From Microgenomates group bacterium ADurb.Bin219 (GTDB lineage: Bacteria > Patescibacteriota > Microgenomatia > UM-FILTER-40-11): 64,000 nucleotides of DNA. Below the pieces are notes generated by a model, which was not told the DNA's origin, did not search any database, and worked only from the letters and a program-made list of their open reading frames with translations. This document shows, one piece after another, positions 1,093-37,252 of the stretch. Made by a program: the position numbers and the translations under genes. Position 1 is the stretch's first letter. Each line of letters begins with the position of its first letter. The stretch covers positions 4,252 through 68,251 of the forward strand of contig MWCH01000001.1 in NCBI GenBank assembly GCA_002069945.1, written 5' to 3'.

Positions 1093-1182
1093 GCCGTATT
1101 TTAACCTAAAGCGAGGCTCTTTTCAAAGAAGAGATTCTTTGCCCTGAAGCCGGGATTATGTTGTATTTTGGGAAGGTTGGTT

Positions 1183-1542
1183 TTAGCTAAAAAGTTGTTT
1201 AATTTTGGAAGACCATTTTTCCGCCCATTCATCTGCCTCAACTTTATTCAAGGCCAACTTAAGACCGCTTTTTTTAATCCATTTGGCGGTTTGGGAAATG
1301 GTGGCGCTGGAAACTCCCAGTTCTTCTCTGATTTTGGAATAGCTGACTCCTTCTTTAAGCAATTTTGCCAAATAAATTTTTTTGGCGATTGAGGCAATTT
1401 CGGTTTGGGGAATAACTACCGGCAAGATTTCCTCGGCTTCTTCGGGAGTTTTAATATCGGCAATCAGCTGGTAAAAAGTATTAAGAAAAGGAGAAGCCTT
1501 TTTTTCTTTTTTAACCAAAGATTTTTTAATTCCCTTTTTCAT
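1183..1542 (-). CDS. Small DNA-binding protein, TrpR/YerC-YecD-like helix-turn-helix
   Basis: The 119-aa product contains the segment SKIREELGVSSATISQTAKWIKKSG, which looks like a helix-turn-helix. I assigned the family from memory of TrpR-related proteins and did not search. Confidence 0.45.
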   Translation of the reverse strand: MKKGIKKSLVKKEKKASPFLNTFYQLIADIKTPEEAEEILPVVIPQTEIASIAKKIYLAKLLKEGVSYSKIREELGVSSATISQTAKWIKKSGLKLALNKVEADEWAEKWSSKIKQLFS

Positions 1543-1615
1543 TTTTTTGTTTCAACAAAAAACCCCTTTCGAGGCAGTTAGGTAGTTTAAAGATAACATT
1601 ATCCTTAGGTTTATG

Positions 1616-1981
1616 TCAAGGGTTTTTGTTTTTTCGGGAAAAGTAGAGTTCCAGACAGACAATAATTCCTATCAAAAGAAGGATATTTAAAGGGTAAGCC
1701 TGTTTTATCAGGCGAAGCAGTAAAAAGCCGGCAATAAAAAGACTAGTCAAAAAACCTTTTCTGGTGTTGGAAAAGATAAAGGCGAGAGTAAGGGTAAGAG
1801 ATAGTGTCAGGGTGAAAAAAAATAAAATAAGAGAGAAGGGAATATCAAATGAAAAATGAAAAATGAAAAATGAAAAATGTTGATCGGGAGAAATATTAAA
1901 GACAACATAAAACCACAGTAACCAAAGAAAAAGGTTAAGAATAAAAGTTAATAAAAAATTTCTGCGGCGTTTTAGCGGCAT
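1616..1981 (-). CDS. Hypothetical small polytopic membrane protein
   Basis: The 121-aa product is highly hydrophobic, and part of it (FFIFHFSF) is encoded by a tandem AATGAAA repeat. It might be a gene remnant. Confidence 0.35.
   Translation of the reverse strand: MPLKRRRNFLLTFILNLFLWLLWFYVVFNISPDQHFSFFIFHFSFDIPFSLILFFFTLTLSLTLTLAFIFSNTRKGFLTSLFIAGFLLLRLIKQAYPLNILLLIGIIVCLELYFSRKNKNP
1848..1880. repeat. Tandem heptamer repeat (AATGAAA) of about 4.5 units inside the small membrane ORF
   Basis: Read directly from the sequence: aaatgaaaaatgaaaaatgaaaaatgaaaaatg. Confidence 0.7.
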
Positions 1982-2077
1982 GCGTTAGTGATTACTAGAC
2001 TTCGGACAGTGAACTCGAATAAGGGAAATCTATTAATCTTCAATTTAAGATTAACAAAACCATGATAAAATAGATAC

Positions 2078-3118
2078 ATGACAAAGGAAATTTATTTGCT
2101 TTTCGCCTTGGTAATAGGATTAATAGGCCTAATCGGATATTTTATTAACAAAAAACTTTCCGAAGTTGCTCAGGGTTCCCAGCAAGACCAGGTTTTGACC
2201 GAGTGGCTTAAGACCATGCAATCTTCGCTTGACAATACCACCAAAACTTTAAATTCAGCGCTTTCCTCTACCAGTAAGAACCTTTCCGATACTTTGCAGA
2301 AAGGCAATCAGGACTTAAACCAAAGACTTGATAATGCCGCCCGGTTAATGTCGCAAATTCAAAAAGATGCCGGTCGGTTTGCCGAGCTTTCGCTTTCAAT
2401 GAAAAATTTGCAGGATTATTTAAAGTCGCCGAAATTAAGAGGCAACATTGGCGAGGAGGTTTTAAAAGATCTGATTTCCCAAATGTTTCCCAAAAATTCT
2501 TTTTTTCTCCAGTATTCTTTTAAATCTGGAGACAAAGTTGACGCGGCTATCAAAACCGATGCCGGCATTTTGCCGATTGATTCAAAGTTCCCCGCGGAAA
2601 ATTTCCAAAAAATGCTGGCGGCGGAAAACGATACGGAGAAAGAAGATTGGCGCCGGGAATTTATCAAGGATGTCAAAAAACATATTACCGATATTTCCAA
2701 AAAATATATTTTACCCGAGGAAGGGACGATGGATTTTGCCCTGATGTATATTCCCTCGGAGCCGATTTATTACGAGGTGGTAAATTTATTGGAACTGACG
2801 GATTTTGCCCGGAAAAACCGCGTCTATCCGGTTTCTCCCAATACTTTGTATGCCAATTTACAGGTGATTTTATTGTCTTTTCAGGGAAAAGAGATTGAAA
2901 AAAGAACCAAACAGGTTTTTGTTTTAATGAGGGCAATTCAAAAAGACTACACCAAAATTACCGACGAGCTTTCGGTTCTTAACCGCCACATTACCAACTC
3001 CTATAATCAGATGGCCAACGTTAATTCCGGCTTTGCCCTAATGGGCCAGAAATTATCTTCAACTCAAGCTTTGGGAGAAATAAAAGAGGAAAAAGGAAAA
3101 GGAGAGAACAGAGAGTAG
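2078..3118 (+). CDS. rmuC: DNA recombination protein RmuC-like
   Basis: The product has an N-terminal transmembrane segment, a long coiled-coil (Q/L/N-rich) and a conserved C-terminal region (GNIGEEVLKDLISQMFP ... DFALMYIPSEPIYYEV) typical of RmuC. Confidence 0.75.
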   Translation: MTKEIYLLFALVIGLIGLIGYFINKKLSEVAQGSQQDQVLTEWLKTMQSSLDNTTKTLNSALSSTSKNLSDTLQKGNQDLNQRLDNAARLMSQIQKDAGRFAELSLSMKNLQDYLKSPKLRGNIGEEVLKDLISQMFPKNSFFLQYSFKSGDKVDAAIKTDAGILPIDSKFPAENFQKMLAAENDTEKEDWRREFIKDVKKHITDISKKYILPEEGTMDFALMYIPSEPIYYEVVNLLELTDFARKNRVYPVSPNTLYANLQVILLSFQGKEIEKRTKQVFVLMRAIQKDYTKITDELSVLNRHITNSYNQMANVNSGFALMGQKLSSTQALGEIKEEKGKGENRE

Positions 3119-3186
3119 AGCAAGAGTAGATATTTCTTTTTTCTTTTACTCAAACCTCTTTTTCTCTGATGTAAGTTATATTAGTT

Positions 3187-6100
3187 ATGGAAGAGAAAAA
3201 ATTAAACCAAGAACAGATTGAGGCGGTTCACTTCGGAAAAGGACCGCTTTTGATTATTGCCGGCGCCGGAACGGGGAAGACAACGGTTATTACGGAAAGA
3301 ATCAAACATTTAATTACTTCGGGTTTGGCTAAGCCTTCGGAAATTCTCGCCTTAACTTTTACGGAGAAAGCAGCCAAAGAAATGGAAGAGAGAGTTGATG
3401 TTGCCCTGCCGCTTGGTTATACGCAGATGTGGATTATGACCTTTCACTCTTTCTGTGATCGCGTTTTACGTGACGAGGCGGTTCATATTGGTTTGGACTC
3501 CCGGTATAAATTGATGACCGAAGCGGAATCAATCATGTTTTTGCGAAAAAATCTTTTTAAGTTTGATTTAAATTATTTTTGTCCCTTGGGCAATCCGAAT
3601 AAGTTTATTGATGGGATGCTGAAACATTTCAGCAGGTTGAAGGATGAAGACGTAGCGCCAGAAAATTATTTACTGTATGCTAAAAATTTTCCGGAGAAGT
3701 TAAAAGTTGAAAGTGAAGAAGCAAAGAAATATTGGGAATTGGCGGGAGCATATAAAACTTATGAAGAAATGAAAGTAAAGGAAGGAGTAATGGATTTTGG
3801 CGACTTGATAACCAATACCTTAAAATTGTTCCGCCAAAGACAAAACGTTTTAAAACAATATCAAGACAGATTTAAATATCTTTTGGTTGATGAGTTTCAG
3901 GATACCAATTATGCTCAAAACGAATTGGTTTTGCTTTTGGCAGGAGAAAAGAAAAATTTGACCGTGGTTGCCGATGACGATCAATGTCTACCTTTGGGAA
4001 CTTTAATTTCTACTTCAAAGGGGGATAAAAGAATTGAGGAAATAAAAAAAAAGGAAAAGGTCATAACCGCTGTAGGGAAAGGATATACTTCATTTTCTGT
4101 CGTCACCCATATATTCAAGACAAAAAAGAAGAGTAGATTTTTAAAATTAGTTACCGATAAGGGAACCCAGATAACTCTTACCGATAACCATAAAATGTTT
4201 TGTCTGGTTCCCAATAGAGTTTACGGAAAAAAGAAATATTTTTACATTTATCTTATGGAAAGAGTTGGTTTGGGGTGGAGATTGGGAGTGACTAATGATT
4301 TATGCCAACGCTTAAAACTGGAAAGATCAGCGGATAGAATAATTGCGATAAGGGCTTGTCAGACAGAGGAGGAGGCAAGATATTTTGAAACTTTTTACTC
4401 TTTGGTTTACCACATTCCCACAATATGTTTTAAGCCTCGGCGCCGGACGATAATTAAAGGCGCTTGGATGGAAAAATTGTTCAAGGAAATCGATACCGAA
4501 ACGAACGTTCAAACTTTAGCTAAAGATTTGGGAATTGATTTACGAGGACATCATTTTTGTTTAGGAGCGGTAATAAGAGGCCGGCAAAGAAGAGTAAAAA
4601 TAAATTTAAGAATTTGTAAAAGAAACTATCGGACAAAATATGCCCTCGGCAGATATTTATCTAATCCTTCAGTCCTTCATGAGATAAACATTGAAACTTC
4701 TGACAAAAAAGTGACGAGTAAATTAAAAAAAGAGGGTTATAAAATTCTTAGAGCAAAAAAAGGCGATAGGGTAAGAATTTCTTTTGGAAATTTGGATCGG
4801 GCAGAAGAAGAGATAAACAAATTAATGATTCTTACGGGAGGGATTTTAGACGTGAAGTTTGATGTTGGGAAAAGAAATAAATATGCGAGACAAGCACAAA
4901 CAATGGCGGCAGGAAACGTCTTGCCGGGTTTTTATATTCCGGTGTTAAAGGATTATCAAATAGAGTATGAAATGGTCGTTAAAAGAGAAGAGTTTGTCAA
5001 AGAGAATTTTGTTTATGATTTAGAAGTTGCAAGGACTCATAACTATGTCGCTAACGGTGTAGTTGTCCACAATTCAATTTACAAATGGAGGGGCGCCGCA
5101 ATTTCTAACGTTATCCAATTAAGAAAAAGAATTCCCGAAACGAAAATTGTTGTTTTAACCAAAAACTACCGTTCAAATCAGAAAATTTTGGACAAAGCCT
5201 ATCGGTTAATTCAAAATAATAATCCCGACCGGTTGGAGGTTAAAGAAAAGATTGATAAAAAGTTAGTGGCGATGAGAAATATTAGGGGCGTTGGGGAGGT
5301 TGGGGATGTTAAGTTGATACACGCAGACAGAGTGGAGAATGAGGCGGAAGAAGTAGCGAAGGAAATTAGTTCTTTAATAAACGGTAAACAGTTAGCGGAA
5401 AGCGGAAGCTACCGGTTTAAAGATTTTGCGATTTTGGTGAGGGCCAATAATCACGCGGATGCTTTTATCCGGGCATTGGCCCGCCGGGGAATTCCTTACC
5501 AATTTTTGGGGCCGGGGATGCTTTTCCGCCAACCCGAAGTTAAAGATTTAATCGCTTATCTGGAAGTTTTGTATAATTTTGAAGATTCGGTTGCCCTTTA
5601 CAGAATTTTGGCGATGGATTTTTTCGCTCTTTCCGGACGGGACTTGGCCGCCATAAATAACTTTGCCCGTAAAAATAATCTCTCTTTATTTGAAGCTTGC
5701 GAGAAAATTGTCAACAATAATTCGGTGATAAGCGAAGAGTCAATAGAAATCGTAAGAAAGCTGGTGGAAATGATTCACCGCCATCTGGATTTGGTAAAAA
5801 AGGAAACCGCCGGACAAATTATTTATAATTTTTTGGAAGAAAGCGGGTTACTTAAAGGCCTGACCGAGTATAAATCGGTCGGCGACGAAAGAAAAGCCAA
5901 TAATATCGCCAAATTTTTTGACAAGCTGCGTTCTTATGAAGTTGATCACGAGGACGCTTCGGTAGCGGCAGTGGTTGATTGGATAAATTTATCAATGGAA
6001 TTGGGCGAGTCGCCCCGGGCGGCCGATATTGACTGGACGGAAAACGACGCGGTTAATATTTTAACCGTTCACTCGGCCAAAGGTTTGGAATTTCCGGTTG

Positions 6101-7206
6101 TCTTTTTGGTCAATTTGGTCGGCCAGCGTTTTCCGACCACGGAAAGAAAGGAGCAGATTCCCCTTCCGGAAGAATTGATAAAAGAAATTTTGCCGGAAGG
6201 CGACTATCATCTTCAGGAAGAAAGAAGGCTTTTTTATGTTGGGATGACCAGGGCGAAAGACCGGCTTTATTTGACGGCAGCCGATTATTACGGAGAAGGA
6301 AAAAGAGAAAAGAAAATTTCGCCTTTTGTTTACGAGGTATTGGGAGAAGAGACGGTTAATAACAAACAGTTAACCGTCAACAGTAATCAGATGTCTATCT
6401 TTGATTTCAAACCAGCCCAGGAGTCAAAATCTCCAATTACCAATCAACAATCACCAATTACTTATCTTTCTTATTCTCAGATTGACACTTTTAACATCTG
6501 CCCTTTGCAATACAAATATAAATTTATTTTAAGAATTCCGACACCTCCTTCCGGAGCGGCCGCTTTCGGCAGCGCCATTCACGAAACAATGCGCGATTTT
6601 TACCAAAGGATTTTGGCGGGACAAGACCCGACCCAAGAAGATCTTTTAAAGATTTTGGCGGAAAATTGGGTTTCTTTGGGTTATTCTTCCAAAAACCAGG
6701 AAGAAAAATATAAAAGAGAGGGAGAAAAAATTCTCCGGGCTTTTTATGAAAAAACTTACGACCGAAAGACGAAACCGAAATGCTTGGAGCAGGTTTTTTC
6801 GGTTAAAATTTCTTCCGGGTTAAAAATCGGAGGAAAAATTGACCGAATTGATTTAACGGAACAGGGAGTTGAAGTCATTGACTATAAAACAGGCAGTGCC
6901 TCTTCCAAAAAGGACGTTGCTAAGGATTTGCAATTGACAATTTATGCTTTGGTGGCGACCGACGGCACTTTGGAATATATGGGAATTTTAGACAAAACTC
7001 CCCTGCCGGAAGAAGTTAAAGTTTCCTTTTATTTTTTTGACAACCAGGAAAAAGTATCGGCCGTCAGGACCAGAGAGGAATTGGAACAGGTAAAAAAGGA
7101 GTTAATCGCCAAAGCGGAAGAGATTTACAAAAGTGATTTTTCGCCCTCGCCGGGAAAGATGTGCGATTTTTGCGACTACAGACTTTTATGTGAAGCCTGG
7201 AGATAA
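3187..7206 (+). CDS. UvrD/PcrA-family helicase with a C-terminal Cas4/AddB-like PD-(D/E)XK nuclease domain, interrupted by an intein in helicase motif III
   Basis: Walker A is AGAGTGKTT and motif II is LLVDEFQDTN. Motif III is split as VADDDQ | intein | SIYKWRGAA. The downstream helicase motifs are present. The C-terminus has four cysteines in RecB/Cas4 Fe-S arrangement (NICPLQYKYK ... CDFCDYRLLCEAW) and catalytic-type residues (IDYKTG ... QLTIY). Confidence 0.85.
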   Translation: MEEKKLNQEQIEAVHFGKGPLLIIAGAGTGKTTVITERIKHLITSGLAKPSEILALTFTEKAAKEMEERVDVALPLGYTQMWIMTFHSFCDRVLRDEAVHIGLDSRYKLMTEAESIMFLRKNLFKFDLNYFCPLGNPNKFIDGMLKHFSRLKDEDVAPENYLLYAKNFPEKLKVESEEAKKYWELAGAYKTYEEMKVKEGVMDFGDLITNTLKLFRQRQNVLKQYQDRFKYLLVDEFQDTNYAQNELVLLLAGEKKNLTVVADDDQCLPLGTLISTSKGDKRIEEIKKKEKVITAVGKGYTSFSVVTHIFKTKKKSRFLKLVTDKGTQITLTDNHKMFCLVPNRVYGKKKYFYIYLMERVGLGWRLGVTNDLCQRLKLERSADRIIAIRACQTEEEARYFETFYSLVYHIPTICFKPRRRTIIKGAWMEKLFKEIDTETNVQTLAKDLGIDLRGHHFCLGAVIRGRQRRVKINLRICKRNYRTKYALGRYLSNPSVLHEINIETSDKKVTSKLKKEGYKILRAKKGDRVRISFGNLDRAEEEINKLMILTGGILDVKFDVGKRNKYARQAQTMAAGNVLPGFYIPVLKDYQIEYEMVVKREEFVKENFVYDLEVARTHNYVANGVVVHNSIYKWRGAAISNVIQLRKRIPETKIVVLTKNYRSNQKILDKAYRLIQNNNPDRLEVKEKIDKKLVAMRNIRGVGEVGDVKLIHADRVENEAEEVAKEISSLINGKQLAESGSYRFKDFAILVRANNHADAFIRALARRGIPYQFLGPGMLFRQPEVKDLIAYLEVLYNFEDSVALYRILAMDFFALSGRDLAAINNFARKNNLSLFEACEKIVNNNSVISEESIEIVRKLVEMIHRHLDLVKKETAGQIIYNFLEESGLLKGLTEYKSVGDERKANNIAKFFDKLRSYEVDHEDASVAAVVDWINLSMELGESPRAADIDWTENDAVNILTVHSAKGLEFPVVFLVNLVGQRFPTTERKEQIPLPEELIKEILPEGDYHLQEERRLFYVGMTRAKDRLYLTAADYYGEGKREKKISPFVYEVLGEETVNNKQLTVNSNQMSIFDFKPAQESKSPITNQQSPITYLSYSQIDTFNICPLQYKYKFILRIPTPPSGAAAFGSAIHETMRDFYQRILAGQDPTQEDLLKILAENWVSLGYSSKNQEEKYKREGEKILRAFYEKTYDRKTKPKCLEQVFSVKISSGLKIGGKIDRIDLTEQGVEVIDYKTGSASSKKDVAKDLQLTIYALVATDGTLEYMGILDKTPLPEEVKVSFYFFDNQEKVSAVRTREELEQVKKELIAKAEEIYKSDFSPSPGKMCDFCDYRLLCEAWR
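3985..5073 (+). mobile_element. Intein of 363 aa, probably carrying an endonuclease/linker domain, inserted in UvrD motif III
   Basis: It starts with Cys (CLPLGTLIS, block A) and has block B LTDNHKMF (TxxH). The C-terminal block is FVYDLEVARTHNYVANGVVVHN, followed by the +1 Ser of the extein (SIYKWRGA). Removing it restores the canonical DDDQSIYxWRGA motif. Confidence 0.8.
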
Positions 7207-7345
7207 GGACGGTGCTGGAGTGGTTACGGAAGAGGGAAACGGGAAAGAAAGTTAGATAAAGAGCGAGGAAGAATTCTTTAGGAAATTAAAAAGGAAAGCC
7301 TAAAGACTGTTTTTCTGATTCCCGGGAAGATTTGATAAACCCTCC

Positions 7346-9898
7346 TTAGAAAGTAGTTTTTTGAGAAGAATCAATTTTAAGAAAGTAGCCTCTATAATTA
7401 TCTAAGACAAAATCAAGCCCATACACCTCCTGTTTTTCTTTAGCCAGAGATTCCCACAACCCTGATTCGAAACGGGAAAGAACCTTGCCGTTGGATTTAT
7501 CAAGGATGTAAGAGGCGAAACAATTAACGCCAATTTGGCAGGAAGTTTTGGGCAACCCAATAGCATTCCAGCCAGGCTGCAAATCTAAAGTAATTGATTG
7601 AGTTATTTCTTCACCTGAAGGTTGCCAAGTCGAAGTTTTTATGGCATTAACAAAATATGAAACGCCCGGCTTGATAACAAAGTTATTAGAAGTAGTATTT
7701 AATGAGTAGCTTTCCCATTTACTATTTTCCCATTTTGAGATAATGTATACTTCTCCTCCCTGATTATTAATTTGATCAAGTAACTCTTTAGCGTTCATTG
7801 ATTCATTAGGCATAATGGGTAAACTTAACAAGTTCCAGCCCGGATTAATTTTTACTGATCGAATGACTTCCTTTATCTCAAAACTACCTTGAGTTGAGGA
7901 ATTAAGCTTTTCCATTTTAATATCTGCAAAATAGTTCTTATTCGAAGATGTGGGCGTCCAATCGAAGTTTAAATCTTTGTATCCGGAGCTAGAAATTGTA
8001 ACTTTGTAACCTTTCCCAATATCGGTTATTAATCCAAAGTTCCCGTTAGCATCAGTGACGGTCTTAATTTTTTTACCCGAAGAATCAGTAAGTGTAATAG
8101 TTGCGTTGGCAAGACGTGTTTTGGTATTTTGTTCAGCAAAAACTTTTTTAATCAGAATATTTAATGGAGGAACCAAGAATGATTCGCTATCAGGAGTTGG
8201 TTCTCCAGCTGAGACGGTCCCGCTTATTATTGTTTGTTCGGAATTCGGTTGGGCAGACTCACCCATAATACATTGGCAATTTTGACAGGTACCAGTCCGC
8301 CCACCAAAAAGGGAACAACTTTCACCATTATTGTGGTTAAAACAAGCATCTAATTTCGATAAATGTTGACAAGGCAAAGGAGTAGAAGAGGGTGGAGAAG
8401 TAGGATAGGAACTTCTACATATGCAATTTTTGCAATTTCCCGAAACTATTCCTAAACTACAAGGGTCATTTTCGTATTTTCCTTCACAGGCGAGTATTTC
8501 CATTGAACCCGGATTCATCGGACAAGGAGTAGGGGAAGGGATAGCTGGTACACGAGTTAAAGAAGAAGTAAGGGTAAGGGTTGGTGCGCTAGTTGGTGAG
8601 GTCCGAGTTGGTACACGAGTTAAAGAAGGAGATGGAGTATTGGAGGAAGAATTGGGAGCATGACAACCTAATTGGCAGGCTTGATCAGTGCGAAACGAAC
8701 TATCAGAGTTGTAACAATAGCACCGATTATTGCCCGTTTGACAGTTTAATGCCAAAAGTATTCCCGGATAGGAACGATTACATTGAGTTCCGTTGCAGAA
8801 ATAATCAGGACGACTGGAGGTTAGGCATTCTCCACCGCTAGTATTAAGCAATTTTTTGCAGGCTGAATCACAGTCAACCGGGAAATCTTGTCCCGGAGAA
8901 GGGGCTGGAGAGATGGTTGGGGTTTGTTGAACTGTAGGAGAAGTTACATCTCGACATTCGGCAACTCCCTGTGCATTAACAGTACAAGTTGTCCCTTGGC
9001 AGGTGCTGGTTCTTTGCCAATAACGTCCATATTGTGTAGCTTGGCAAGTTTGGATGCTTTTCCCGTCTGAGCTACACCTGCTTTTATTTAACTCAGAGGC
9101 TTGACAATTAAGATTTTGGCTTACGGTTGTTGGAGTCGGTTGAACTGTAGGTTGGGTAGCAGATGGAGTTATGGTCGCAAGACCATTAGCATTTTCGCAA
9201 TCGGCTTGAGTGGAGTAAGAGCCGCTCTCTGTGAAACAGGTGCAGACATATCCCGGGCAACTGGTTTGGTTGAGAGTTCTCTGCTTGGTATTTAATTTAT
9301 ACACCGCGCCGGAAATAGCACACCATTTCGCCGGTTTTGAGCCGCAAACATTATTGTAGGAGGCATTAGCTGCACGACAGGCTTCAGCACAGTTGGGGAA
9401 AGGAACAGTAGGGATAGGAACATTACAGCCGGGATTGGGTTGACTGCATGAAACTCCGGTGTTGCGACCGGCTTTGGTATAGGAAAAACCCCTAGCATCA
9501 CACCACTTTTCCACAATTACCCAGTTTGTTCCATCGCAATCAACTCTTTCGCATGCGCTTAATTGTTGGTTTTCTCTACCGGCACAGTCTGGCTGTGGTA
9601 GCGGTTGATTTTGGCAATTTGTGCCCGGACAACTATCGCCTCCGCGGTCGGCACAATCACCCCAATAGAACAAAGTTCCTCCGGCAGTATTACATTTTCT
9701 TACCTCTTTTGCCTTATGGCATTCGTTAGGACAACATTCACCATAAGTTCCTCCGTCAGTAGAGCCGGGGGGACAAACAGTGGCTGGGACACTGGACCCA
9801 CCGACATAACCGGCTTGAGCATCACCAGTTAAACCTCTCGAAAATATTCCCAAAAGGCAAATGATCAATAGTCGGTGAAAAATAGCTTTTCTTTTCAT
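7346..9898 (-). CDS. Large secreted cysteine-rich protein with Thr/Pro/Ser linkers and C-terminal carboxypeptidase-regulatory-like beta-sandwich domain(s)
   Basis: The product has a signal peptide (MKRKAIFHRLLIICLLGIFS) and dozens of Cys in repeated C-x-C contexts. PT/ST-rich linkers separate the modules. The C-terminal segment ATITLTDSSGKKIKTVTDANGNFGL matches a CarboxypepD_reg-like pattern. It is the last gene of a three-gene minus-strand operon whose genes overlap by 4 nt. Confidence 0.55.
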   Translation of the reverse strand: MKRKAIFHRLLIICLLGIFSRGLTGDAQAGYVGGSSVPATVCPPGSTDGGTYGECCPNECHKAKEVRKCNTAGGTLFYWGDCADRGGDSCPGTNCQNQPLPQPDCAGRENQQLSACERVDCDGTNWVIVEKWCDARGFSYTKAGRNTGVSCSQPNPGCNVPIPTVPFPNCAEACRAANASYNNVCGSKPAKWCAISGAVYKLNTKQRTLNQTSCPGYVCTCFTESGSYSTQADCENANGLATITPSATQPTVQPTPTTVSQNLNCQASELNKSRCSSDGKSIQTCQATQYGRYWQRTSTCQGTTCTVNAQGVAECRDVTSPTVQQTPTISPAPSPGQDFPVDCDSACKKLLNTSGGECLTSSRPDYFCNGTQCNRSYPGILLALNCQTGNNRCYCYNSDSSFRTDQACQLGCHAPNSSSNTPSPSLTRVPTRTSPTSAPTLTLTSSLTRVPAIPSPTPCPMNPGSMEILACEGKYENDPCSLGIVSGNCKNCICRSSYPTSPPSSTPLPCQHLSKLDACFNHNNGESCSLFGGRTGTCQNCQCIMGESAQPNSEQTIISGTVSAGEPTPDSESFLVPPLNILIKKVFAEQNTKTRLANATITLTDSSGKKIKTVTDANGNFGLITDIGKGYKVTISSSGYKDLNFDWTPTSSNKNYFADIKMEKLNSSTQGSFEIKEVIRSVKINPGWNLLSLPIMPNESMNAKELLDQINNQGGEVYIISKWENSKWESYSLNTTSNNFVIKPGVSYFVNAIKTSTWQPSGEEITQSITLDLQPGWNAIGLPKTSCQIGVNCFASYILDKSNGKVLSRFESGLWESLAKEKQEVYGLDFVLDNYRGYFLKIDSSQKTTF

Positions 9899-10677
9899 TT
9901 TAGAGTTACAAATCTAGCTGGTTGTCTTAATGTCGCCGATTGAAAATCACTGTTGTAGTAGCGACCGCTTCTGGCTTCTAAGAATATTAAATCTTCTTTT
10001 GTAATTTCATGAAAGCTTTCTTGGTTAAATTGTCTTAAATTGCCTAAATCTAGACTCCAAACCCCCCGGATATCAGTAAAAGTTGAAAGAGTTGAAGATT
10101 TGATTAAATTGGTATTTTCGCCGTCAATAAGAACTAAATAAACTAATACATCAGCCGCGCCAGTTTTGCCGTCACTTTGAAATACCCGGGAAAAAATTGG
10201 CTGGGGCATTGACAATTTTTCCAAAGCCGAGGCCGTTTTTATATCCGGTAGTATTTTACCATTGGCATCTGTTTTCAAAACTTTATTGTTGGAAACAATT
10301 CGGTAATAGTAACTGGAATTTGGTTTTAAATTTTTTAAGGTGACATGGTGGGTATAAGAAGGGTTGGTAATTTCATTTTGGGCGATATTGTATTTTTCCA
10401 ATAAAAGAGGATACAGAAAGCTTAACTGAAGGCTTCTTAAAATTCGGTTTTCCTGTTGACTAAAAATAACTTGGCTTCTGACTGGTTTATCGGTCGTCCA
10501 GGAAATTGAAAGAGAAGAATCAGTCACGTTGGAGATTCTTAGATTTTGTGGCGAAACAGTCGGGGCAGGGGAAAATATAATAATTAAAAATCCAACCAGA
10601 ATGGCTACAAACAAGCATAAAATAAGTTTAAAATAGCGGTATGAAGTAAGGGAAATTTTATTTCCAAATTTTTTCAT
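9895..10677 (-). CDS. Membrane-anchored FN3/purple-acid-phosphatase-N-like domain protein (paralog B)
   Basis: An N-terminal transmembrane segment is followed by PQNLRISNVTDSSLSISWTTDKP ... YTHHVTLKNLKPNSSYYYRIVS. The likely ATG is at 10677, while the track ORF starts at a TTG at 10683. Confidence 0.55.
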   Translation of the reverse strand: MKKFGNKISLTSYRYFKLILCLFVAILVGFLIIIFSPAPTVSPQNLRISNVTDSSLSISWTTDKPVRSQVIFSQQENRILRSLQLSFLYPLLLEKYNIAQNEITNPSYTHHVTLKNLKPNSSYYYRIVSNNKVLKTDANGKILPDIKTASALEKLSMPQPIFSRVFQSDGKTGAADVLVYLVLIDGENTNLIKSSTLSTFTDIRGVWSLDLGNLRQFNQESFHEITKEDLIFLEARSGRYYNSDFQSATLRQPARFVTLK

Positions 10678-10679
10678 TT

Positions 10680-11564
10680 TCAAGTTTTTTTATTAAAACT
10701 AAAAATTCTTTTGAAAAATTTTATAATTTTTGTTAGCCAATTTTCCTTTTCCTCAACCGGACTGGCTGGCCAGAGCTGGGTTTCGAATGAAGGAGGCGAT
10801 TTCAAAGTGCTTTCTGTTTCCGCATTTGTTTCTTTTGGAGAAGCGGTTAGAGTTATATCGGTCAGAGTTTGATTGTCTTGGACGACTATCGGTTTGACAA
10901 CAGTCGTTTCTCCGTCAGCCACCAAAAGATAGCCTTTTTCGTTCATTTGTACTAGGTATGGAGTTGCCCGGTCCTTGTTTCGGCTATTGTTGAGATTTAA
11001 AAGGTAATTCCCGTTTTTGTCAGTTAGAGTAGAAATGGGGGTAGAATTATTAAAACTGAAGTAGACCAGAACTTCATTGGCCGGCATTTGGTTGGTATTT
11101 AAGATTCTTCCTTTAAGAATAAAAGGAGGCAGGGGGGTAGCGGCTGGAGTGGCGGGAGTGGTAAATTCATAAGGACGGCCATTGTTGTCAAATCTTTCTT
11201 CACCAGAAACCAAAAGGAAGTAATAAGTTTTTCCAGGATAAAGGTCTTTAAGAGTGATGTGATGGATTTTAGAACTTGGTTGACTGGGGCGATCATCAAA
11301 AGCAACCTGTTTTTTTAATAAATCATTACTTTCAGAGTAAAAAAGCAATCCCTTGGTAGGGAAGTCTGTTAGCCAGGAAACGGTTAAGGAATTTTCTGAA
11401 AGATTAGTTAGCTTTACTTCTTTGGGGGTGGGTTCCGGAGCAGCTTGGGATCGAAAAATAGTTGGATTTTGAATTAAAAATAAAAGTCCGCCTAAACCAA
11501 TAAGGATTGCACCAAAGCCTAGTAAGTTTTTTTTCAGGTGGTTATCGATTTTTATTTTTTTCAT
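10680..11564 (-). CDS. Membrane-anchored FN3/purple-acid-phosphatase-N-like domain protein (paralog A)
   Basis: An N-terminal transmembrane segment is followed by PKEVKLTNLSENSLTVSWLTDFPTKG ... HHITLKDLYPGKTYYFLLVS, then a carboxypeptidase-regulatory-like segment. The ATG is at 11564. Confidence 0.55.
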   Translation of the reverse strand: MKKIKIDNHLKKNLLGFGAILIGLGGLLFLIQNPTIFRSQAAPEPTPKEVKLTNLSENSLTVSWLTDFPTKGLLFYSESNDLLKKQVAFDDRPSQPSSKIHHITLKDLYPGKTYYFLLVSGEERFDNNGRPYEFTTPATPAATPLPPFILKGRILNTNQMPANEVLVYFSFNNSTPISTLTDKNGNYLLNLNNSRNKDRATPYLVQMNEKGYLLVADGETTVVKPIVVQDNQTLTDITLTASPKETNAETESTLKSPPSFETQLWPASPVEEKENWLTKIIKFFKRIFSFNKKT

Positions 11565-11740
11565 CAACAACGGTTACTTTTTACTATTATACATAAAAAT
11601 TTGAATGTCAAGTGTTATTATCTGATAGGGTTATCAGGCTATAATATATATGAGATATTTATTAAAAATAAAATTAGAGCAAAAGAGAAAGCGGGAGACA
11701 GAGTAGAAGTTATTTTTGACTTTTAACCTTACGTTATATG

Positions 11741-12583
11741 CTAAAAGCTGAAGCGGTTTTTGATTAAAGACGGCGGAAAATATATTTCTTTTCCACCGAA
11801 TCCTTCTTTAAATTTGGTAAATCCTAGCCAGGCTTTGACCGGATATCTTTCATCGTAGATTCCTTCAAAATCAAAAATTTCGCAATTCATTTTTTTAGCC
11901 AATTTAAATGCTTCCCAAGCTAACAACGAAGGGGCAAACATTTTTTTGCCCTCTTTGGTGGCAGCGGCCAACCAATAGTAAGCCACTTTATTTGCATGAA
12001 GCAGAAAAATTCCCGCGACCGGCTTTTCTTGAAAATAGGCAATCAAAATTTTGGCACTTTTCGGATAAAAGGCAAGGTAAAGATTTTTGATTTCATTATC
12101 GGTGGCAAAAGGAATAATATTTTTTTCCCACAAAGAATGTTTCTTCAACCAAAGGAATTCCCGAAAGTCTTTTGCCTGCTTAACCATAATGCCGTTTTTT
12201 TCCGCTTTTCTGACGGCCCTTCTTTTGGCTTCGGAAAAAGAATTAAATATTTCCGGCTCCGGTTTTGTGAGATCTACTTGAATAGTTTTAGTCGGAAAAT
12301 AAGGTTTTTGATTGATTTTAAAATCAATCCTGCTTTCTTGCTCTTTTGCTCTTTTACTTTTGTTAATTTCCTGATCAATCAAAATTTGGAATGCCCGATT
12401 TTGTTTGGCAATTTTTTCAATTTCCGCAAAAGGAAGCGGGGGTTTGATTCTTTGAACCTTAATGATTGAACCGATCAGGGGAAACTTTTTAACAAATATT
12501 TGCCCGCCGGAGATTTTTTCCGTTTTCCAGCCCAGAAGTTTTAAATAATTGGCATAATCGGGAGTTTGTCTAATATCGATCAT
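11741..12583 (-). CDS. FemAB-family aminoacyltransferase (peptidoglycan interpeptide bridge formation), short paralog
   Basis: The C-terminal half is typical of FemX/FemAB family proteins (IFLLHANKVAYYWLAAATKEGKKMFAPSLLAWEAFKLAKKMNCEIFDFEGI). Confidence 0.65.
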   Translation of the reverse strand: MIDIRQTPDYANYLKLLGWKTEKISGGQIFVKKFPLIGSIIKVQRIKPPLPFAEIEKIAKQNRAFQILIDQEINKSKRAKEQESRIDFKINQKPYFPTKTIQVDLTKPEPEIFNSFSEAKRRAVRKAEKNGIMVKQAKDFREFLWLKKHSLWEKNIIPFATDNEIKNLYLAFYPKSAKILIAYFQEKPVAGIFLLHANKVAYYWLAAATKEGKKMFAPSLLAWEAFKLAKKMNCEIFDFEGIYDERYPVKAWLGFTKFKEGFGGKEIYFPPSLIKNRFSF

Positions 12584-12597
12584 TCATCGTTGTCTCG

Positions 12598-13614
12598 TTA
12601 GCTTGTTTTTGCCTTTAGCCTTAAAATTTTCCAGCGAAGTTTGTCAATCAGATTGTAAAGCTTATAAAGCTTTGGATTAATCACTAAATCGTAAGTACCC
12701 ACAAATTCTACCAATTTAGGGGAAAAGCCTTCTTTGAAGCGGTGAAAGCCGTAATAGGGGTGGTTGGGGGACGGATTCGGTTCAAGGTCACCCCAAAGGT
12801 CAAATTTTTTAAGCCCCAGTTTTTTACCGAACTTAATTGCTTCCCACATTAATAAAGTCGGGGCCATCAATTCTTTGTGTTCCCTAGTGGAAGCGCCGTA
12901 AGGATAGTACAAAGTGTCCTTAAAAACAAAAAGCAGAAAGGCAGCGAGAATATCGTCCTTGGAGCCGGCGGTCAAAAGACGGGAAATACCGGCCGGTTGT
13001 AAAATTTGCCATTGGGCTTGGTGAAAGTTTTGGCTATGGGCGTAGAAACCCTGTCTGGCGGTTGTTTCGAACAAGAGTTTTAAATATTCTTTAAACGCCT
13101 TTGGGGAATTGTCCTCTTTGGCGGTAACGCCGCGTTTTTCTGCCAACCGAATATTGTATCGGGTTTTCGGATGCATTTTTTTAAGCAATTCTTCTTCGGA
13201 TAAGGATAAATCAATCACGGAAGTATATTTGGTAAATATCGGTTTCCCGGGAAATAATCCCCAGTCAATCATTGTCTTCCTGTTTACTGTTGATTGTTTA
13301 CCGTTGACAGTATTCGGTTCTAACTTAATAAAGATGGCTTTGTTTTCTTGGCCGATTTCTTTCAGGAATTTGATTATTTCCTTTGTCGGCAATGGGCCCT
13401 TGGGAAAATAGCCAACGGTATATGGCAAATGAGGAATCTTATGAAAAAATAATTGAAAAGCAGAAACCAGCTTTTCTTTTTCGTAAATTCCGGCGCGGAC
13501 AACTTTTTGCCCCAGTTTTTCCCGGAATTCGCCCCATTCATAGGATTGAAGGGGATGATTTACAAGTTTGTTAAACGCCTCTTTGTCTTTTGCTGTTAGT
13601 TCTTTAATAATCAT
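12598..13614 (-). CDS. FemAB-family aminoacyltransferase
   Basis: The N-terminus reads HPLQSYEWGEFREKLGQKV and the C-terminus reads AFLLFVFKDTLYYPYGASTREHKELMAPTLLMWEAIKFGKKLGLKKFDLWG. The two paralogs lie in tandem, 14 nt apart. Confidence 0.7.
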   Translation of the reverse strand: MIIKELTAKDKEAFNKLVNHPLQSYEWGEFREKLGQKVVRAGIYEKEKLVSAFQLFFHKIPHLPYTVGYFPKGPLPTKEIIKFLKEIGQENKAIFIKLEPNTVNGKQSTVNRKTMIDWGLFPGKPIFTKYTSVIDLSLSEEELLKKMHPKTRYNIRLAEKRGVTAKEDNSPKAFKEYLKLLFETTARQGFYAHSQNFHQAQWQILQPAGISRLLTAGSKDDILAAFLLFVFKDTLYYPYGASTREHKELMAPTLLMWEAIKFGKKLGLKKFDLWGDLEPNPSPNHPYYGFHRFKEGFSPKLVEFVGTYDLVINPKLYKLYNLIDKLRWKILRLKAKTS

Positions 13615-13680
13615 CTGCCTGAAGAAAATTTTCTTAAATTTCTTGGGAACTTTAACTTGCTTTATTTTACCACTCTTTTC

Positions 13681-15528
13681 CTACGAGAGTAGCTGGAGCA
13701 ATTCTTGGGGAATATCCATCAAAAAGCGGGAAGGAAGGTTGGCACTTCTCTGGCCAAAGTAAAGACGGCGACGGGCATAAGTTAAATATACTTTTTCCTT
13801 GGCGCGGGTAATTCCGACATAGCAGAGCCTTCTTTCTTCTTCCAATTGAGAATTATCTAAAAGACTGCGCGAATGGGGGAAAAGACCTTCTTCCATCCCG
13901 ACCATAAAAACAACGGGGAATTCCAGCCCTTTAGCGGCATGAAGTGTCATCAGGGTAACCGCTCCCCTCTTGTCGGTCGTTTTTTTGTCTTTAACCGGAT
14001 GATCGGGAAGTTGCTCCTGTTCAACCAGGGCAACATTTTCCAAGAACTGGTTTAGCTCGGGAAAATTGGTGGCGACCGAGCCAAGCTCTTTAATATTTTC
14101 CAGCCGGGTCAAATCCTCTTCGTCTTCGGCATCGTAAAGATCTAGGTAGCCTGTTTCCTTAAGAGTTTTTTCAAGGATTTCCATGGTTGTCAGGTTTTTC
14201 CGGCCGATTAACGATTTTTGCAGTTTTAAAAATTTTTCCAGTCGGCCTTTCCCCAGTTTTTCAATTCTTTTATAAGAAACCATATCCTTAGGATTGGCCA
14301 AAAGTCTTAAATAAGAAAGAACATCTTTTATTTCCTTCCTTTCATAGAAACGAGTACCGCCGACCAGGGAATAAGGAATCCCTGCTTGTAAAAAGGCCTC
14401 TTCCAGAACGCGGGATTGAGCATTGGTTCGATAAAGGATGGCGAAATAAGAGTAATTGGGGGCAAGTCGTGAGTTGGAGGAGACGCGATTCAGAATTTGG
14501 CGGACAATAAATTCCGCTTCTTCCAATTCGTTGGCAGCTTCGTAAAGAAAAGCGTTTTCTCCTTTCGGGTTTTCGGTCCAAAGTTTTAAAACCGGATGGG
14601 AAGAGTTATGGGAGATGACGGAATAGGCGGTGTCCAGAATTTTTTGGGTTGAACGGTAATTTTGTTCCAAATTAATAGTTTTCAGGTCGGGAAAATCTTC
14701 CTTGAGTTTTAAGACATTTTTAAAATCGGCGCCGCGCCACATATAAATTGATTGGGCCATATCGCCGACAACGGTTAAATTATTAAATCTTTTGGCCAAT
14801 AATTTAGTCAAAACATATTGGGCATGGTTGGTATCCTGGTATTCGTCAACAAGAAGATAGCGGTATTTGTTTTGATAATCGCCCAGAATTTCCGGAAATT
14901 TTTTAAAAAGATTGACCGTTTTAAAAATCAAATCATCAAAATCCAAAGCTTCGTTTTCTTTTAAAAAATTTTGGTATTTCCGGTAGACTCTGGCCACGGT
15001 TTCCTGCCAATAACCGCGGACATATTGGGGATATTCCAACTCGGAAATCAATTCGTTTTTCGCTTCGGAGATGGTTGTCAGAACCGCGCGGGGATTAAAT
15101 TCTTTTGGCGACAGTTGCAATTGATTAAGAATTTCTTTAACCGCGTCAATTTGGTCCTGATCGTCATAGATAAGATAATTGGGGGGAATGCCGATATTTT
15201 TCCCTTCTTTACGCAAAATTTTGGCGCAAAAGGAATGGAAAGTGCCGGCATATGGAAGGTGGGAAGTAAAGCTTGAGAGGCGTGCCGGGAGTTGAGAAGC
15301 GAGGATTTTTTGGAGGCGGTCTTTCATCTCGCCCGCGGCCTTATTGGTAAAAGTCAGCAGCAAGATATTTTCCGGAGGGACTTTCTTTTCCGCTATCAGC
15401 CAGGCGGTCCGGTAAATTAAAACCCGGGTTTTTCCCGAACCGGCGCCGGCCAGAACCAAAAGCGGGCCGTTATGGTAAACGACCGCTTCTTGTTGAGCCG
15501 GATTCAAATCTGCTAAAATATCTTTCAT
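13681..15528 (-). CDS. pcrA: ATP-dependent DNA helicase, UvrD/PcrA family (uninterrupted copy)
   Basis: The sequence begins MKDILADLNPAQQEAVVYHNGPLLVLAGAGSGKTRV, and contains LLVDEYQDTN, VVGDMAQSIYMWRGAD and LHAAKGLEFPVVFMVG. The likely start is an internal Met of the track ORF. Confidence 0.85.
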   Translation of the reverse strand: MKDILADLNPAQQEAVVYHNGPLLVLAGAGSGKTRVLIYRTAWLIAEKKVPPENILLLTFTNKAAGEMKDRLQKILASQLPARLSSFTSHLPYAGTFHSFCAKILRKEGKNIGIPPNYLIYDDQDQIDAVKEILNQLQLSPKEFNPRAVLTTISEAKNELISELEYPQYVRGYWQETVARVYRKYQNFLKENEALDFDDLIFKTVNLFKKFPEILGDYQNKYRYLLVDEYQDTNHAQYVLTKLLAKRFNNLTVVGDMAQSIYMWRGADFKNVLKLKEDFPDLKTINLEQNYRSTQKILDTAYSVISHNSSHPVLKLWTENPKGENAFLYEAANELEEAEFIVRQILNRVSSNSRLAPNYSYFAILYRTNAQSRVLEEAFLQAGIPYSLVGGTRFYERKEIKDVLSYLRLLANPKDMVSYKRIEKLGKGRLEKFLKLQKSLIGRKNLTTMEILEKTLKETGYLDLYDAEDEEDLTRLENIKELGSVATNFPELNQFLENVALVEQEQLPDHPVKDKKTTDKRGAVTLMTLHAAKGLEFPVVFMVGMEEGLFPHSRSLLDNSQLEEERRLCYVGITRAKEKVYLTYARRRLYFGQRSANLPSRFLMDIPQELLQLLS

Positions 15529-16528
15529 GCCAGACAATTTTAAAGGAAAAACGGCAGAAGAGAAAGTGGAGCCGGAAAAGGAAAGCGTTAAAAGCAGTAA
15601 AAAAGGTAAAGGAAGAGGCTGTTTATTTTTTCTCTTTCTGGTTTTGGTTTTATTTTTTTGGGGAAGAAGATTTGTTAAAGGGCTTCCGCAAATTAGAGAA
15701 GACAATGGGAGGGTAAATTTGGTTTTGTTGGGGATCAGCGGCGATGGTCAAAAACCGGCCGATTTAACCGATACCATTATCTTTTCCTCTTTTAATAAAA
15801 GCAACGGCCGGACTCTTTTCCTTTCTTTGCCTAGAGACATTTGGTCCGACAGCTTAAAGTCTAAAATCAATACCGCTTATCATTACGGCGGTTTTTCTTT
15901 GGCCAGACAATCGCTTGAGGAAATTTTAGGCCAACCGGTCCACTATCTTTTTGTTTTGGATTTTGAAGGTTTTAAAAAAGTGGTTGATTTTCTCGGGGGA
16001 ATTGATATTTATATTGAAAGAACATTTACCGACTTTAAATATCCGGTTCCCGGAAGGGAAGACGATCTTTGCGACGGGGACAAGGAATTGAAATGCCGCT
16101 ACGAAGAACTTCATTTTGAAAAAGGATGGGAAAAGATGGACGGGGAAAGGGCTTTAAAATTTGTCCGTTCGCGGAATGCCGAAGGCGAAGAAGGAACGGA
16201 TTTTGCCCGCAACCAAAGACAGCAAAAATTTCTTTTGGCCCTGAAGGATAAGGCTCTTCAGCCGAAAAACATTTTTCGTCTTAAAGAAGCAATCAAGTTA
16301 TTGCCCTCTTTGATCAAGACCGATTTAAAACAGGAAGAATATTCGAATTTCGGGTTAACTTTTTTAAGATTTCAATCGGATAAAATTAAAACAGAACAGC
16401 TTAAAACCGAAGGGGAAGAAGCCTTACTTTTTCATCCTTTAAGGCATTCTTCCGGACAATGGGTTTTGTTACCCAAAGACGGAAACGGGGAAGAAATAAG
16501 AGGTTTTGTAAAAAAGAATTTACCGTGA
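15527..16528 (+). CDS. LytR-CpsA-Psr (LCP) family cell-envelope phosphotransferase
   Basis: An N-terminal transmembrane segment is followed by DTIIFSSFNKSNGRTLFLSLPRDIW ... INTAYHYGG and KFVRSRN, which are LCP hallmarks. Confidence 0.75.
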   Translation: MPDNFKGKTAEEKVEPEKESVKSSKKGKGRGCLFFLFLVLVLFFWGRRFVKGLPQIREDNGRVNLVLLGISGDGQKPADLTDTIIFSSFNKSNGRTLFLSLPRDIWSDSLKSKINTAYHYGGFSLARQSLEEILGQPVHYLFVLDFEGFKKVVDFLGGIDIYIERTFTDFKYPVPGREDDLCDGDKELKCRYEELHFEKGWEKMDGERALKFVRSRNAEGEEGTDFARNQRQQKFLLALKDKALQPKNIFRLKEAIKLLPSLIKTDLKQEEYSNFGLTFLRFQSDKIKTEQLKTEGEEALLFHPLRHSSGQWVLLPKDGNGEEIRGFVKKNLP

Positions 16529-16585
16529 TAGGCATTACGAATTAAGGGATTAAAAGATTAACGAAATTTCTTTACTCTTGCTTTA

Positions 16586-18805: not shown

Positions 18806-18925
18806 AAAGCCATTTTAGAAATATGTTGTGTTTGTTTCAAGAGGCTGGTATATTTGAACAAGAAAAATTCGAAATCCGAGGCTAAACCTGGTGTTTAAAA
18901 TTTAGAAATTGAATTTAGTTTTTTT

Positions 18926-19474: not shown

Positions 19475-19481
19475 TTTCCAA

Positions 19482-20612: not shown

Positions 20613-20616
20613 ACAA

Positions 20617-21354: not shown

Positions 21355-21368
21355 TTAAAACAAATTCG

Positions 21369-23117: not shown

Positions 23118-23123
23118 TTTTAA

Positions 23124-27701: not shown

Positions 27702-27730
27702 AGGCTGATTTTAGCAAAGAAAGCCCTCTT

Positions 27731-28519: not shown

Positions 28520-28527
28520 TTTATTGA

Positions 28528-31175: not shown

Positions 31176-31211
31176 AGATTATTTTTTTCATAACCTGTTT
31201 ATTTTTGTTTA

Positions 31212-31541: not shown

Positions 31542-31616
31542 GATTTTCTCAAGAGTAAAAGAGTAAAAGCAAAATCTACTCTTGTTCTGCCCCCTGTTTT
31601 CTCTCGCTCTATTATT

Positions 31617-32800: not shown

Positions 32801-32932
32801 TTTTTTAAATTTATCCTCTGTTTTAGTATATATAAAGGTAGTTGGCCCTGTCAAAGCCGCCAAAGATAATTTTCCCTAATTTATTTTTGCTGGCCCTTTT
32901 TAATTGGGTTTTTTTTCGGTAGAATTAGGCTG

Positions 32933-34597: not shown

Positions 34598-34608
34598 AGA
34601 AATCTTTG

Positions 34609-36549: not shown

Positions 36550-36550
36550 T

Positions 36551-37234: not shown

Positions 37235-37252
37235 TGGCTCAAATCAATCTTA

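Follow-up and report, generated by a model that had tools for sequence, protein, structure and literature searches.

FN3/transthyretin-like envelope proteins of Microgenomatia: a widespread family with one branch tightly coupled to pilN and pilO

The window analyzed in this work, a 64,000-nucleotide stretch of contig MWCH01000001.1 (assembly GCA_002069945.1, positions 4,252 to 68,251, forward strand) of Microgenomates group bacterium ADurb.Bin219, a representative of the candidate phyla radiation (CPR), encodes four related proteins, paralogs A to D, in which a fibronectin type III (FN3) domain is followed by a transthyretin-like one. The strongest signal found around them, missed in a preliminary description of the same DNA, is the invariant and tight coupling of genes of the paralog C type (C-type) to pilN and pilO, which they follow. 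We read the C-type protein as a candidate lineage-specific extracytoplasmic partner of PilN and PilO, and paralogs A, B and D as putatively co-opted relatives; the chances of this combined reading are, in our estimation, about even, and those of the pilus role taken by itself lie somewhat below that. All functional statements made here are drawn from sequence, predicted structure and gene context.

The operon is encoded on the minus strand of the window and comprises pilN (32252..32863, with the likely start at the ATG at 32800; PilN match of 47.2 bits against a gathering threshold (GA) of 22.8), pilO (31617..32255; PilO match of 50.2 bits, GA 22), a gene for a small protein with a single transmembrane segment (31212..31541; 109 amino acids) and the gene of paralog C (29748..31175; 475 amino acids). 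PilN carries an N-terminal PilM-binding motif of the INLIQ/INLLP type, conserved across 19 orthologs, and the best promoter-like site of the region, a consensus match only (11/12 matches), lies upstream of pilN at 32854..32825. The small protein, 61-132 amino acids long elsewhere, has no family assignment but shares the motif L-x-P-[LI]-[ND]-P-x-[IL]-[DE], and its gene is always located between pilO and the C-type gene (positions 7811-7999 in locus L001, 4337-4636 in L003, and others). The order pilN-pilO-small-C was observed in 28/28 loci retrieved via C-type or D-type proteins, with median intergenic gaps of -1, -1 and +1 bp. The reciprocal test started from PilO: a hand-made degenerate DNA motif gave 120 matches in metagenome contigs, 22 of which were chance hits without a PilO open reading frame (ORF) and 98 contained a PilO-like ORF; in all 64 of these 98 loci that were assessable, i.e., had enough sequence downstream, a C-type gene followed.

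How a type IV pilus crosses the cell wall of a monoderm bacterium and is braced there is not settled, and in the CPR a central part in host attachment and DNA uptake is ascribed to such pili. The CPR lack PilP, PilQ and TsaP (PMC6744442). In Saccharibacteria pilMNO are kept together, with no such FN3 gene (PMC11623550), and in the complete Microgenomates genome Ch65 PilA, PilB, PilC, PilD, PilM and PilT are listed at one locus, PilN and PilO not (PMC7143001). Since the C-type gene is the invariant fourth gene of the operon, and since the main pilus locus of Ch65 lists PilM and not PilN/PilO, we propose that the C-type protein and the small transmembrane protein would belong to the PilM/N/O alignment complex as an extracytoplasmic subunit specific to this lineage; the extracytoplasmic half of that complex would be encoded separately in Microgenomatia as pilN-pilO-small-C. 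The C-type protein would link PilN/PilO to the cell wall, a job performed in diderms by PilP, PilQ and TsaP, while A/B and D would be later duplicates of its head, recruited to a Cys-rich secreted protein and to a cohesin-dockerin/GH39 module, respectively. A more specific scheme, in which Microgenomatia replaced the PilP/PilQ half by the pilN-pilO-small-FN3/transthyretin module, fixed to the wall by an LPXTG-like signal and serving the pilus motor as a stator or conduit in a cell that lacks an outer membrane, and in which the duplicated heads (A/B, D) were plugged into other anchoring systems, is put forward tentatively, as possible rather than probable. The export topology, the sortase processing, the dockerin-cohesin pairing and the contact of the C-type protein with PilN/PilO are in each case predicted.

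Several observations weigh against the pilus reading. No match to PilP (PF04351) was obtained for C-type proteins at E <= 0.1; the comparison with PilP is positional and functional only, the C-type protein not being its homolog. In the window itself the gaps are looser than the median (75 bp between pilO and the small gene, 36 bp between the latter and paralog C), the pentapeptide of paralog C is QPQTG and not LPXTG, and no sortase gene is present in the 64 kb, although sortase is reported to be near-ubiquitous in Microgenomates (PMC6744442). The PilO motif is specific to this type of PilO and is therefore silent on more divergent pilO genes. Part of the synteny may be inherited and without functional meaning, because gene order is generally conserved in this region: rpsT and the divergently oriented murJ are also conserved upstream, if less tightly (tens of bp for rpsT). 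Finally, the FN3 plus transthyretin-like pair occurs in unrelated giant secreted proteins, so that the head may serve generically for spacing or binding. The whole model of paralog C matched in the Protein Data Bank (PDB; Foldseek search) only generic arrays of FN3/Ig domains, such as SiiE, an ice-binding adhesin and fibronectin.

The last points lead to an alternative which we consider rather unlikely, namely that these are ordinary Gram-positive-style adhesins or S-layer-associated glycoproteins carrying a generic head on a Ser/Thr/Pro stalk, the linkage to pilN-pilO reflecting an envelope neighborhood. The likeness of the full model to tandem FN3/Ig adhesins, the presence of Big_13 and Ca_tandemer-type repeats, the match of the transthyretin-like domain to the S-layer stalk SlaB and the recurrence of the head in giant secreted proteins of other phyla agree with it, as do the surrounding envelope genes (MurJ, LCP, FemAB and the GT-C genes PMT_2 and DUF2298) and the conservation of rpsT and murJ. 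What speaks for a specific link to PilN and PilO is, first, the tightness of the arrangement, with pilN-pilO-C gaps of -1 to +1 bp in the 28 loci as opposed to tens of bp for rpsT, and second, its constancy in both locus sets across several candidate phyla, whereas the adjacent genes X1 and X2 evolve rapidly and vary freely next to the C-type gene. Moreover, adhesin genes are usually fast-evolving and mobile, whereas the architecture and position of the C-type are invariant.

The four ORFs are present where the preliminary description had placed them, all on the minus strand: A at 9895..10677 (260 amino acids), B at 10680..11564 (294 amino acids counted from ATG), C as given above and D at 37253..38740 (495 amino acids). 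Two of the proteins, B among them, have identical database entries under Microgenomates group bacterium ADurb.Bin219. The ATG starts adopted there are more plausible than the TTG codons 3-6 nucleotides upstream. True paralogy was confirmed, as A, B, C and D can be aligned over ~240 residues with 25-36% identity, and BLASTP of the pairs gave 52-110 bits (E 2e-9 to 5e-29 at a dbsize of 3e5), while shuffled controls (100 shuffles for each of three pairs) reached 22-24 bits at most. Both the paralogy and the domain folds are near certain. The signature proposed for the region does capture a stretch conserved in all four, but as written it matched none of the four ORFs, being slightly too strict and missing one spacer residue in each half. 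The corrected halves read P-x-x-[VL]-x-[ILV]-[TS]-N-[LV]-[TS]-[DES]-[SNQ]-[SG]-[FL]-[ST]-[VI]-S-W-x-T and H-[HY]-[VI]-x-L-[KE]-[ND]-L-x-P-x-x-x-Y-[YF]-[YF]-x-[IL]-x-S, and in the six-frame translation of the window the two halves joined matched exactly A, B, C and D and nothing else. The invariant Asn where the FN3 domain begins, which stands in an N-x-[ST] context, could be a glycosylation sequon or equally a structural residue.

Each paralog has a single N-terminal hydrophobic segment ending ~5-15 residues before the FN3 domain. The assignment of that domain as FN3 or purple acid phosphatase (PAP) N-domain-like holds for all four, with Pur_ac_phosph_N (PF16656, GA 30) scoring 43.6, 35.7, 43.6 and 33.1 bits in A, B, C and D, respectively, and fn3 (PF00041) exceeding its GA of 25 in A, C and D; a Pur_ac_phosph_N/fn3 domain was matched in 71/71 C-type relatives, and a profile search against the PDB returned FN3 and PAP N-domains only. 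In paralog C the FN3 domain is encoded by 30759..31037, the transthyretin-like domain by 30408..30758 and a Big_13 Ig-like domain by 29976..30245, the last being preceded by a disordered linker and followed by one rich in Ser, Thr and Pro. The AlphaFold2 (AF2) model of this protein, built with 71 homologs (mean predicted local distance difference test score, pLDDT, 80.8), comprises a helix (residues 14-39), a two-domain block (45-250, pLDDT about 95) with beta strands over the FN3 region (49-138, pLDDT >90) in keeping with a seven-stranded FN3-type beta-sandwich, a disordered linker, the Big_13 domain (311-400, pLDDT >90), a disordered Ser/Thr/Pro linker and a helix (450-474). The high confidence across the junction suggests that the FN3 plus transthyretin-like pair is rigid.

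The second domain, earlier described as CarboxypepD_reg-like, proved correctly assigned at the level of fold. CarboxypepD_reg (PF13620) scored 15.4 bits in B and 21.4 bits in C, both below the gathering threshold of 32.3 bits, and gave no Pfam match in A or D; among the relatives it was matched in 47/71 at E <= 0.01 (best E 2.7e-8). The likeness is thus clan-level and not family membership by the curated cut-off. Since Foldseek with the whole protein had returned only generic FN3/Ig arrays, this domain was modeled alone (pLDDT 92.7, predicted TM-score 0.84), and the resulting model matched transthyretin, HIU hydrolase, protocatechuate dioxygenase and the SlaB S-layer stalk (TM-scores 0.4-0.6, E about 1e-3), which is consistent with a transthyretin-like fold, though with marginal scores. 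As the PAP N-terminal domain is the best Pfam match of the head, and as a distant hit (P0038) is a true metallophosphatase, a degenerate enzyme of the PAP/PhoD type was considered. The likeness is, however, confined to the non-catalytic FN3-like domain, and the metallophosphatase domain (PF00149) occurs in 0/4 paralogs and 0/71 relatives; because the catalytic domain is lacking, this reading was rejected and is almost certainly wrong.

The preliminary description spoke of a four-member family, and A to D are indeed related, but they are representatives of four orthologous groups of a far larger one. An initial word-index search yielded 37 relatives, a low figure which the exhaustive search revealed as a sensitivity artefact, and a word-index profile search yielded 261 clusters at E <= 1e-10; the exhaustive HMMER search of 1.84 billion representatives collected 2,925 proteins at E <= 1e-30, giant FN3-repeat proteins included. 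Among its best 150 representatives (50% identity, E <= 1e-92) about 85 had the C architecture, all of them full-length single-stretch proteins of about 400-530 amino acids. Those relatives from the profile search that bear a name are called "hypothetical", "uncharacterized protein YxeA" or "fibronectin type III domain-containing protein"; the taxa named with them are Woesebacteria, Shapirobacteria and the Patescibacteria group, to which the first search added Gottesmanbacteria and a genome scan metagenome-assembled genomes (MAGs) of Roizmanbacteria and Levyibacteria with C-type genes. A to D are paralogs of a Microgenomatia-wide family of cell-envelope proteins with predicted Sec export. Lineage specificity, also claimed before, applies to the full-length architectures but not to the FN3 plus transthyretin-like pair, which is found as well in giant secreted proteins of other phyla with type IX secretion system tails, kelch propellers or proteases. 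No NCBIfam family was assigned to any of the nine proteins tested, only C and D giving sub-threshold domain or repeat hits, and in the literature we found no description of the family or of a pilN-pilO-FN3 operon, the nearest being the preprint on the Pam pilus discussed below. This is a real family, and a large one, described so far only by domain-level annotation. As a side observation, many MAGs with the pilN-pilO-C operon bear the titles "uncultured Gammaproteobacteria" or "Nevskiaceae" in public records, among them OZ246397.1, a 615-kb "chromosome"; in all likelihood they are CPR genomes under a wrong label.

The modules downstream of the head vary, as had been noted before, and both examples then given, a dockerin in D and a PQTG motif with a hydrophobic tail in C, turned out to be real. 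The tail of paralog C consists of QPQTG-NLTTT and a transmembrane segment (29751..29846; hydrophobic residues 448-474). The consensus C-type tail is [VI]-P-x-[STP]-G-x-L-T-P-T followed by a transmembrane segment, with P445 conserved in 69/71 and G448 in 70/71 members; the last 12 residues include a K or R in 67/71 members, paralog C of the window having a single Lys. The proteins X2, encoded downstream, end in LPxAG-xxWPT (QPVTG-LKVPT in the window) and a transmembrane segment. In locus L014, a neighboring 91-amino acid ORF (1298-1573, plus strand) consists of nothing but a signal peptide, a linker of Thr and Pro and a canonical LPETG-ILTPT sequence with a transmembrane segment, so that the local consensus of sorting signals can be gauged against it. 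Sortase-assembled (SpaA-type) pilins were considered as well and rejected, given that A-D, X1 and X2 have no YPK motif, A-D no SpaA/CnaB domain and the operon no sortase.

At the opposite end, C-type proteins carry a conserved K-x-IPT-LLG signal or anchor segment and an invariant Ala42. Their hydrophobic ends are unusually conserved (P13 in 71/71, T14 in 69/71, G460 in 69/71 and G467 in 68/71), which fits helix packing in a putative membrane complex. B, C and D share a conserved ...[KRQ]-A|[SA] site compatible with signal-peptidase cleavage. Ala42 stands in a ...K-A|S-P context, and the signal peptide of a relative in locus L031 is of the canonical cleavable kind, for which reasons we take cleavage of the N-terminal segment to be probable in B, C and D; alternatively, the IPT-LLG segment of the C-type would fit a retained helix packing against PilN, PilO or the small protein. 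The C-terminal modules appear as alternative anchors: an LPXTG-like signal in C, a dockerin in D, a predicted amphipathic helix in B and none in A. Because one unchanging head is combined with tails that represent different recognised anchoring devices, we read A-D as anchored passengers and not as scaffolds.

The preliminary description had the relation probably the wrong way round: it saw a surface-display scaffold family, in which the FN3 proteins, retained by their N-terminal transmembrane segments, would hold Cys-rich proteins on the surface. Each paralog does lie, at the head or within, in a conserved and closely coupled operon together with exported partners, the stop codon of one gene in many cases overlapping the next start; an AxA-like cleavage site is absent from A-type proteins, and the N-terminal segment of the C-type is conserved beyond the needs of a signal peptide. 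On the other hand, three of the four subfamilies have a C-terminal anchoring device of their own, which would be redundant if the N-terminal segment served as the anchor; the putative cleavage site of B, C and D, with its invariant Ala in the C-type, and the canonical signal peptide of the L031 relative point the same way; and in the D operon it is the neighbor, a cohesin protein with a transmembrane anchor, that resembles a scaffold, D itself bearing the dockerin. We therefore regard the scaffold reading as improbable.

A low probability is also given to the view that the family is a part or an analogue of the CPR Pam donor-strand pilus, in which the C-type would be a PamR-like anchor or terminator or a PamC/D-like chaperone, and the neighboring Cys-rich proteins polymerising or displayed subunits. 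Pam homologues are reported mainly from Saccharimonadia and Microgenomatia, and all components have signal peptides; PamR consists of two FnIII domains and a C-terminal transmembrane helix, the chaperones of two beta domains and a C-terminal transmembrane helix, the pilins have paired cysteines, and the pam operon adjoins ATP synthase genes and contains no PilN or PilO (10.64898/2026.03.03.709456). The beta-sandwich domains and C-terminal transmembrane helix of the C-type, as well as its Cys-rich neighbors, resemble this composition. Its conserved partners, however, are PilN and PilO, no ATP synthase was found among the annotated ORFs around the three loci, there is no PapD-type Pfam match, and the second domain is modeled as a complete transthyretin-like sandwich and not as a truncated Ig domain lacking a strand.

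Downstream of paralog C, on the same strand, are located X1 (28528..29760, 410 amino acids), which overlaps the C stop by 13 nucleotides, and X2 (27731..28546, 271 amino acids), which is homologous to L002_204 and L005_X2. X1 has a Pro-rich cytoplasmic N-terminus, a transmembrane segment and a Cys-rich ectodomain (21 Cys); X2 has an N-terminal transmembrane segment, a Cys-rich module (17 Cys), Thr/Pro linkers and the LPXTG-like tail with its transmembrane segment. In loci L001, L003 and L005, X1 likewise shows a Pro-rich low-complexity N-terminus of about 100-170 amino acids, one transmembrane segment and a fast-evolving Cys-rich ectodomain, and some X1 ectodomains end in a beta-rich domain. 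Further downstream of the operon (16586..27701, minus strand) the window encodes an amine oxidase, two GT-C glycosyltransferases of the PMT_2 type, an unassigned membrane protein and a DUF2298 protein; an amine oxidase and DUF2298 are likewise found downstream in Woesebacteria (L003, 7860-13017). The products of this region may add glycans to the Ser/Thr/Pro linkers present in C and X2.

Paralogs B and A are the first two genes of another minus-strand operon, with a promoter-like site (consensus match only) before B at 11611..11583. B comprises an N-terminal signal or anchor, an FN3 domain (about 11157..11429), a transthyretin-like domain (about 10851..11126) and a basic C-terminal segment, WLTKIIKFFKRIFSF (10683..10742), predicted from sequence to form an amphipathic helix. 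A has an N-terminal hydrophobic anchor without an AxA-like cleavage site, an FN3 domain with an insert (about 10282..10551), a transthyretin-like domain (about 9898..10221) and no C-terminal module. It starts 2 nucleotides past the B stop, and its own stop overlaps the start of the third gene (7346..9898), encoding a secreted Cys-rich protein of 850 amino acids with 53 Cys. Besides a CarboxypepD_reg-like domain (residues 589-655), the latter has at its C-terminus a conserved domain of about 190 amino acids without a family match; its conserved C-terminal half found no Pfam or PDB sequence match beyond the CarboxypepD_reg-like domain at its start, and it shares 44% identity over 263 amino acids with the L006 ortholog. 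Two P-G-W-N-x-[LI]-[SG]-L-P motifs lie in its C-terminal ~260 residues (7346..8130). The order of B, A and a CarboxypepD_reg protein of ~840-1040 amino acids is repeated in L006, L042 and L043 among unrelated flanking genes, and in three clusters (P0005-P0007) B and A are fused, with one signal sequence each. Thus A, although devoid of an anchoring module, invariably comes with B, and both the recurrent order and the natural fusions suggest that B and A act together.

Contrary to the statement that every paralog stands beside Cys-rich or pilus genes, which was appropriate for the other loci, D adjoins a cohesin protein and a GH39 glycosidase. D starts with a signal or anchor segment, an FN3 domain (38339..38602) and a transthyretin-like domain into which a Cys-containing stretch is inserted; a beta-rich, uncharacterised region follows, and after it comes a type I dockerin (37292..37432; Dockerin_1 34.6 bits, GA 22.9) with two Ca-binding repeats, DLNNDDRIDSLD and DLNFDGQVNGLD; the dockerin is kept in 6/8 D orthologs. 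A promoter-like site, again a consensus match only, precedes D at 38777..38748. The next gene (36551..37234, minus strand) encodes a protein with a cohesin domain (47.8 bits, GA 24.1), a signal peptide, a Ser/Thr/Pro linker and a C-terminal transmembrane anchor, which is presumed to be the docking partner of D. The third gene of the operon (34609..36549, minus strand) encodes a glycoside hydrolase of family GH39, which is anchored N-terminally and contains a LamG-like domain. The order D-cohesin-GH39 is also found in L044 and L045.

Taken together, the C-type gene came after pilN-pilO wherever this was examined throughout a CPR class, and its product has a tail of the wall-anchoring type; this makes the protein a concrete candidate, open to test, for the outer part that the pilus machine lacks. 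The data also suggest that one binding head moved between three surface-anchoring systems, of which one, in this CPR genome, is a cohesin-dockerin pair. They also help to annotate proteins of these organisms now called "hypothetical" or "fibronectin type III domain-containing". Should the link to the pilus be wrong, an ordinary family of beta-sandwich surface proteins remains.

Some other features of the window deserve mention. A 1707-amino acid bacterial alpha-2-macroglobulin (45391..50514, plus strand) contains a Hint/PT-HINT (intein-like) insert at about residues 841-974, which separates the bait region from the A2M domain; between its gene and that of DnaJ are encoded a matrixin-like (Peptidase_M10) protein (43224..44060, plus strand) and a short, ArfB-like protein with an RF-1 domain (44746..45333, plus strand). 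A helicase-nuclease of the UvrD/AddA type (UvrD and PD-(D/E)XK; 3187..7206, plus strand) is split by an intein (Intein_splicing at residues 281-629, Hint at 262-344). GC skew is positive in all 4-kb bins of 1..64000 (0.05-0.19) regardless of gene orientation, the cumulative skew rising monotonically; another Microgenomates genome has been reported to show a comparable strand disparity (PMC7143001).

With respect to known systems, the first domain of all four paralogs has its best sequence match in the N-domain of PAP (PF16656), but no catalytic metallophosphatase domain follows it in A-D. PamR and PamC/D are, like the C-type, CPR-restricted beta-sandwich proteins with a signal peptide, a transmembrane helix at the C-terminus and a proposed role as membrane tether of an extracellular assembly; they differ in gene context (ATP synthase as against pilN-pilO) and in donor-strand exchange, of which the C-type shows no sign, the C-type being set apart from Pam proteins by description and gene context only. 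With non-cellulosomal cohesin-dockerin pairs the D operon shares the two-repeat type I dockerin, the adjacent anchored cohesin and the glycoside hydrolase next to it, whereas here the dockerin is carried by an FN3/transthyretin-like protein without a recognisable enzyme domain, GH39 has no dockerin, a single pair occurs without a multi-cohesin scaffoldin, and the host is a CPR bacterium. The LPXTG proteins of monoderms resemble the C-type in the N-terminal signal, the N-terminal beta-sandwiches, the Ser/Thr/Pro stalk and the C-terminal P-x-[ST]-G with a hydrophobic segment and a short basic tail. The C-type motif is, however, degenerate ([VI]PxSG; QPQTG in the window) with no sortase nearby, its L-T-P-T and the transmembrane glycines are conserved, unlike in classical signals, and among the paralogs the likeness concerns C only. 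Finally, in comparison with PilP (together with PilQ/TsaP), the C-type has no sequence match and no lipobox, is composed of FN3, transthyretin-like and Big_13 folds, is separated from pilO by the additional gene of the small transmembrane protein, and would be attached through an LPXTG-like signal to peptidoglycan and not to a secretin. Like PilP, it is encoded directly after pilN-pilO as a predicted exported, envelope-attached beta-sandwich protein, and like PilP, it would join PilN/PilO to a fixed outer layer.

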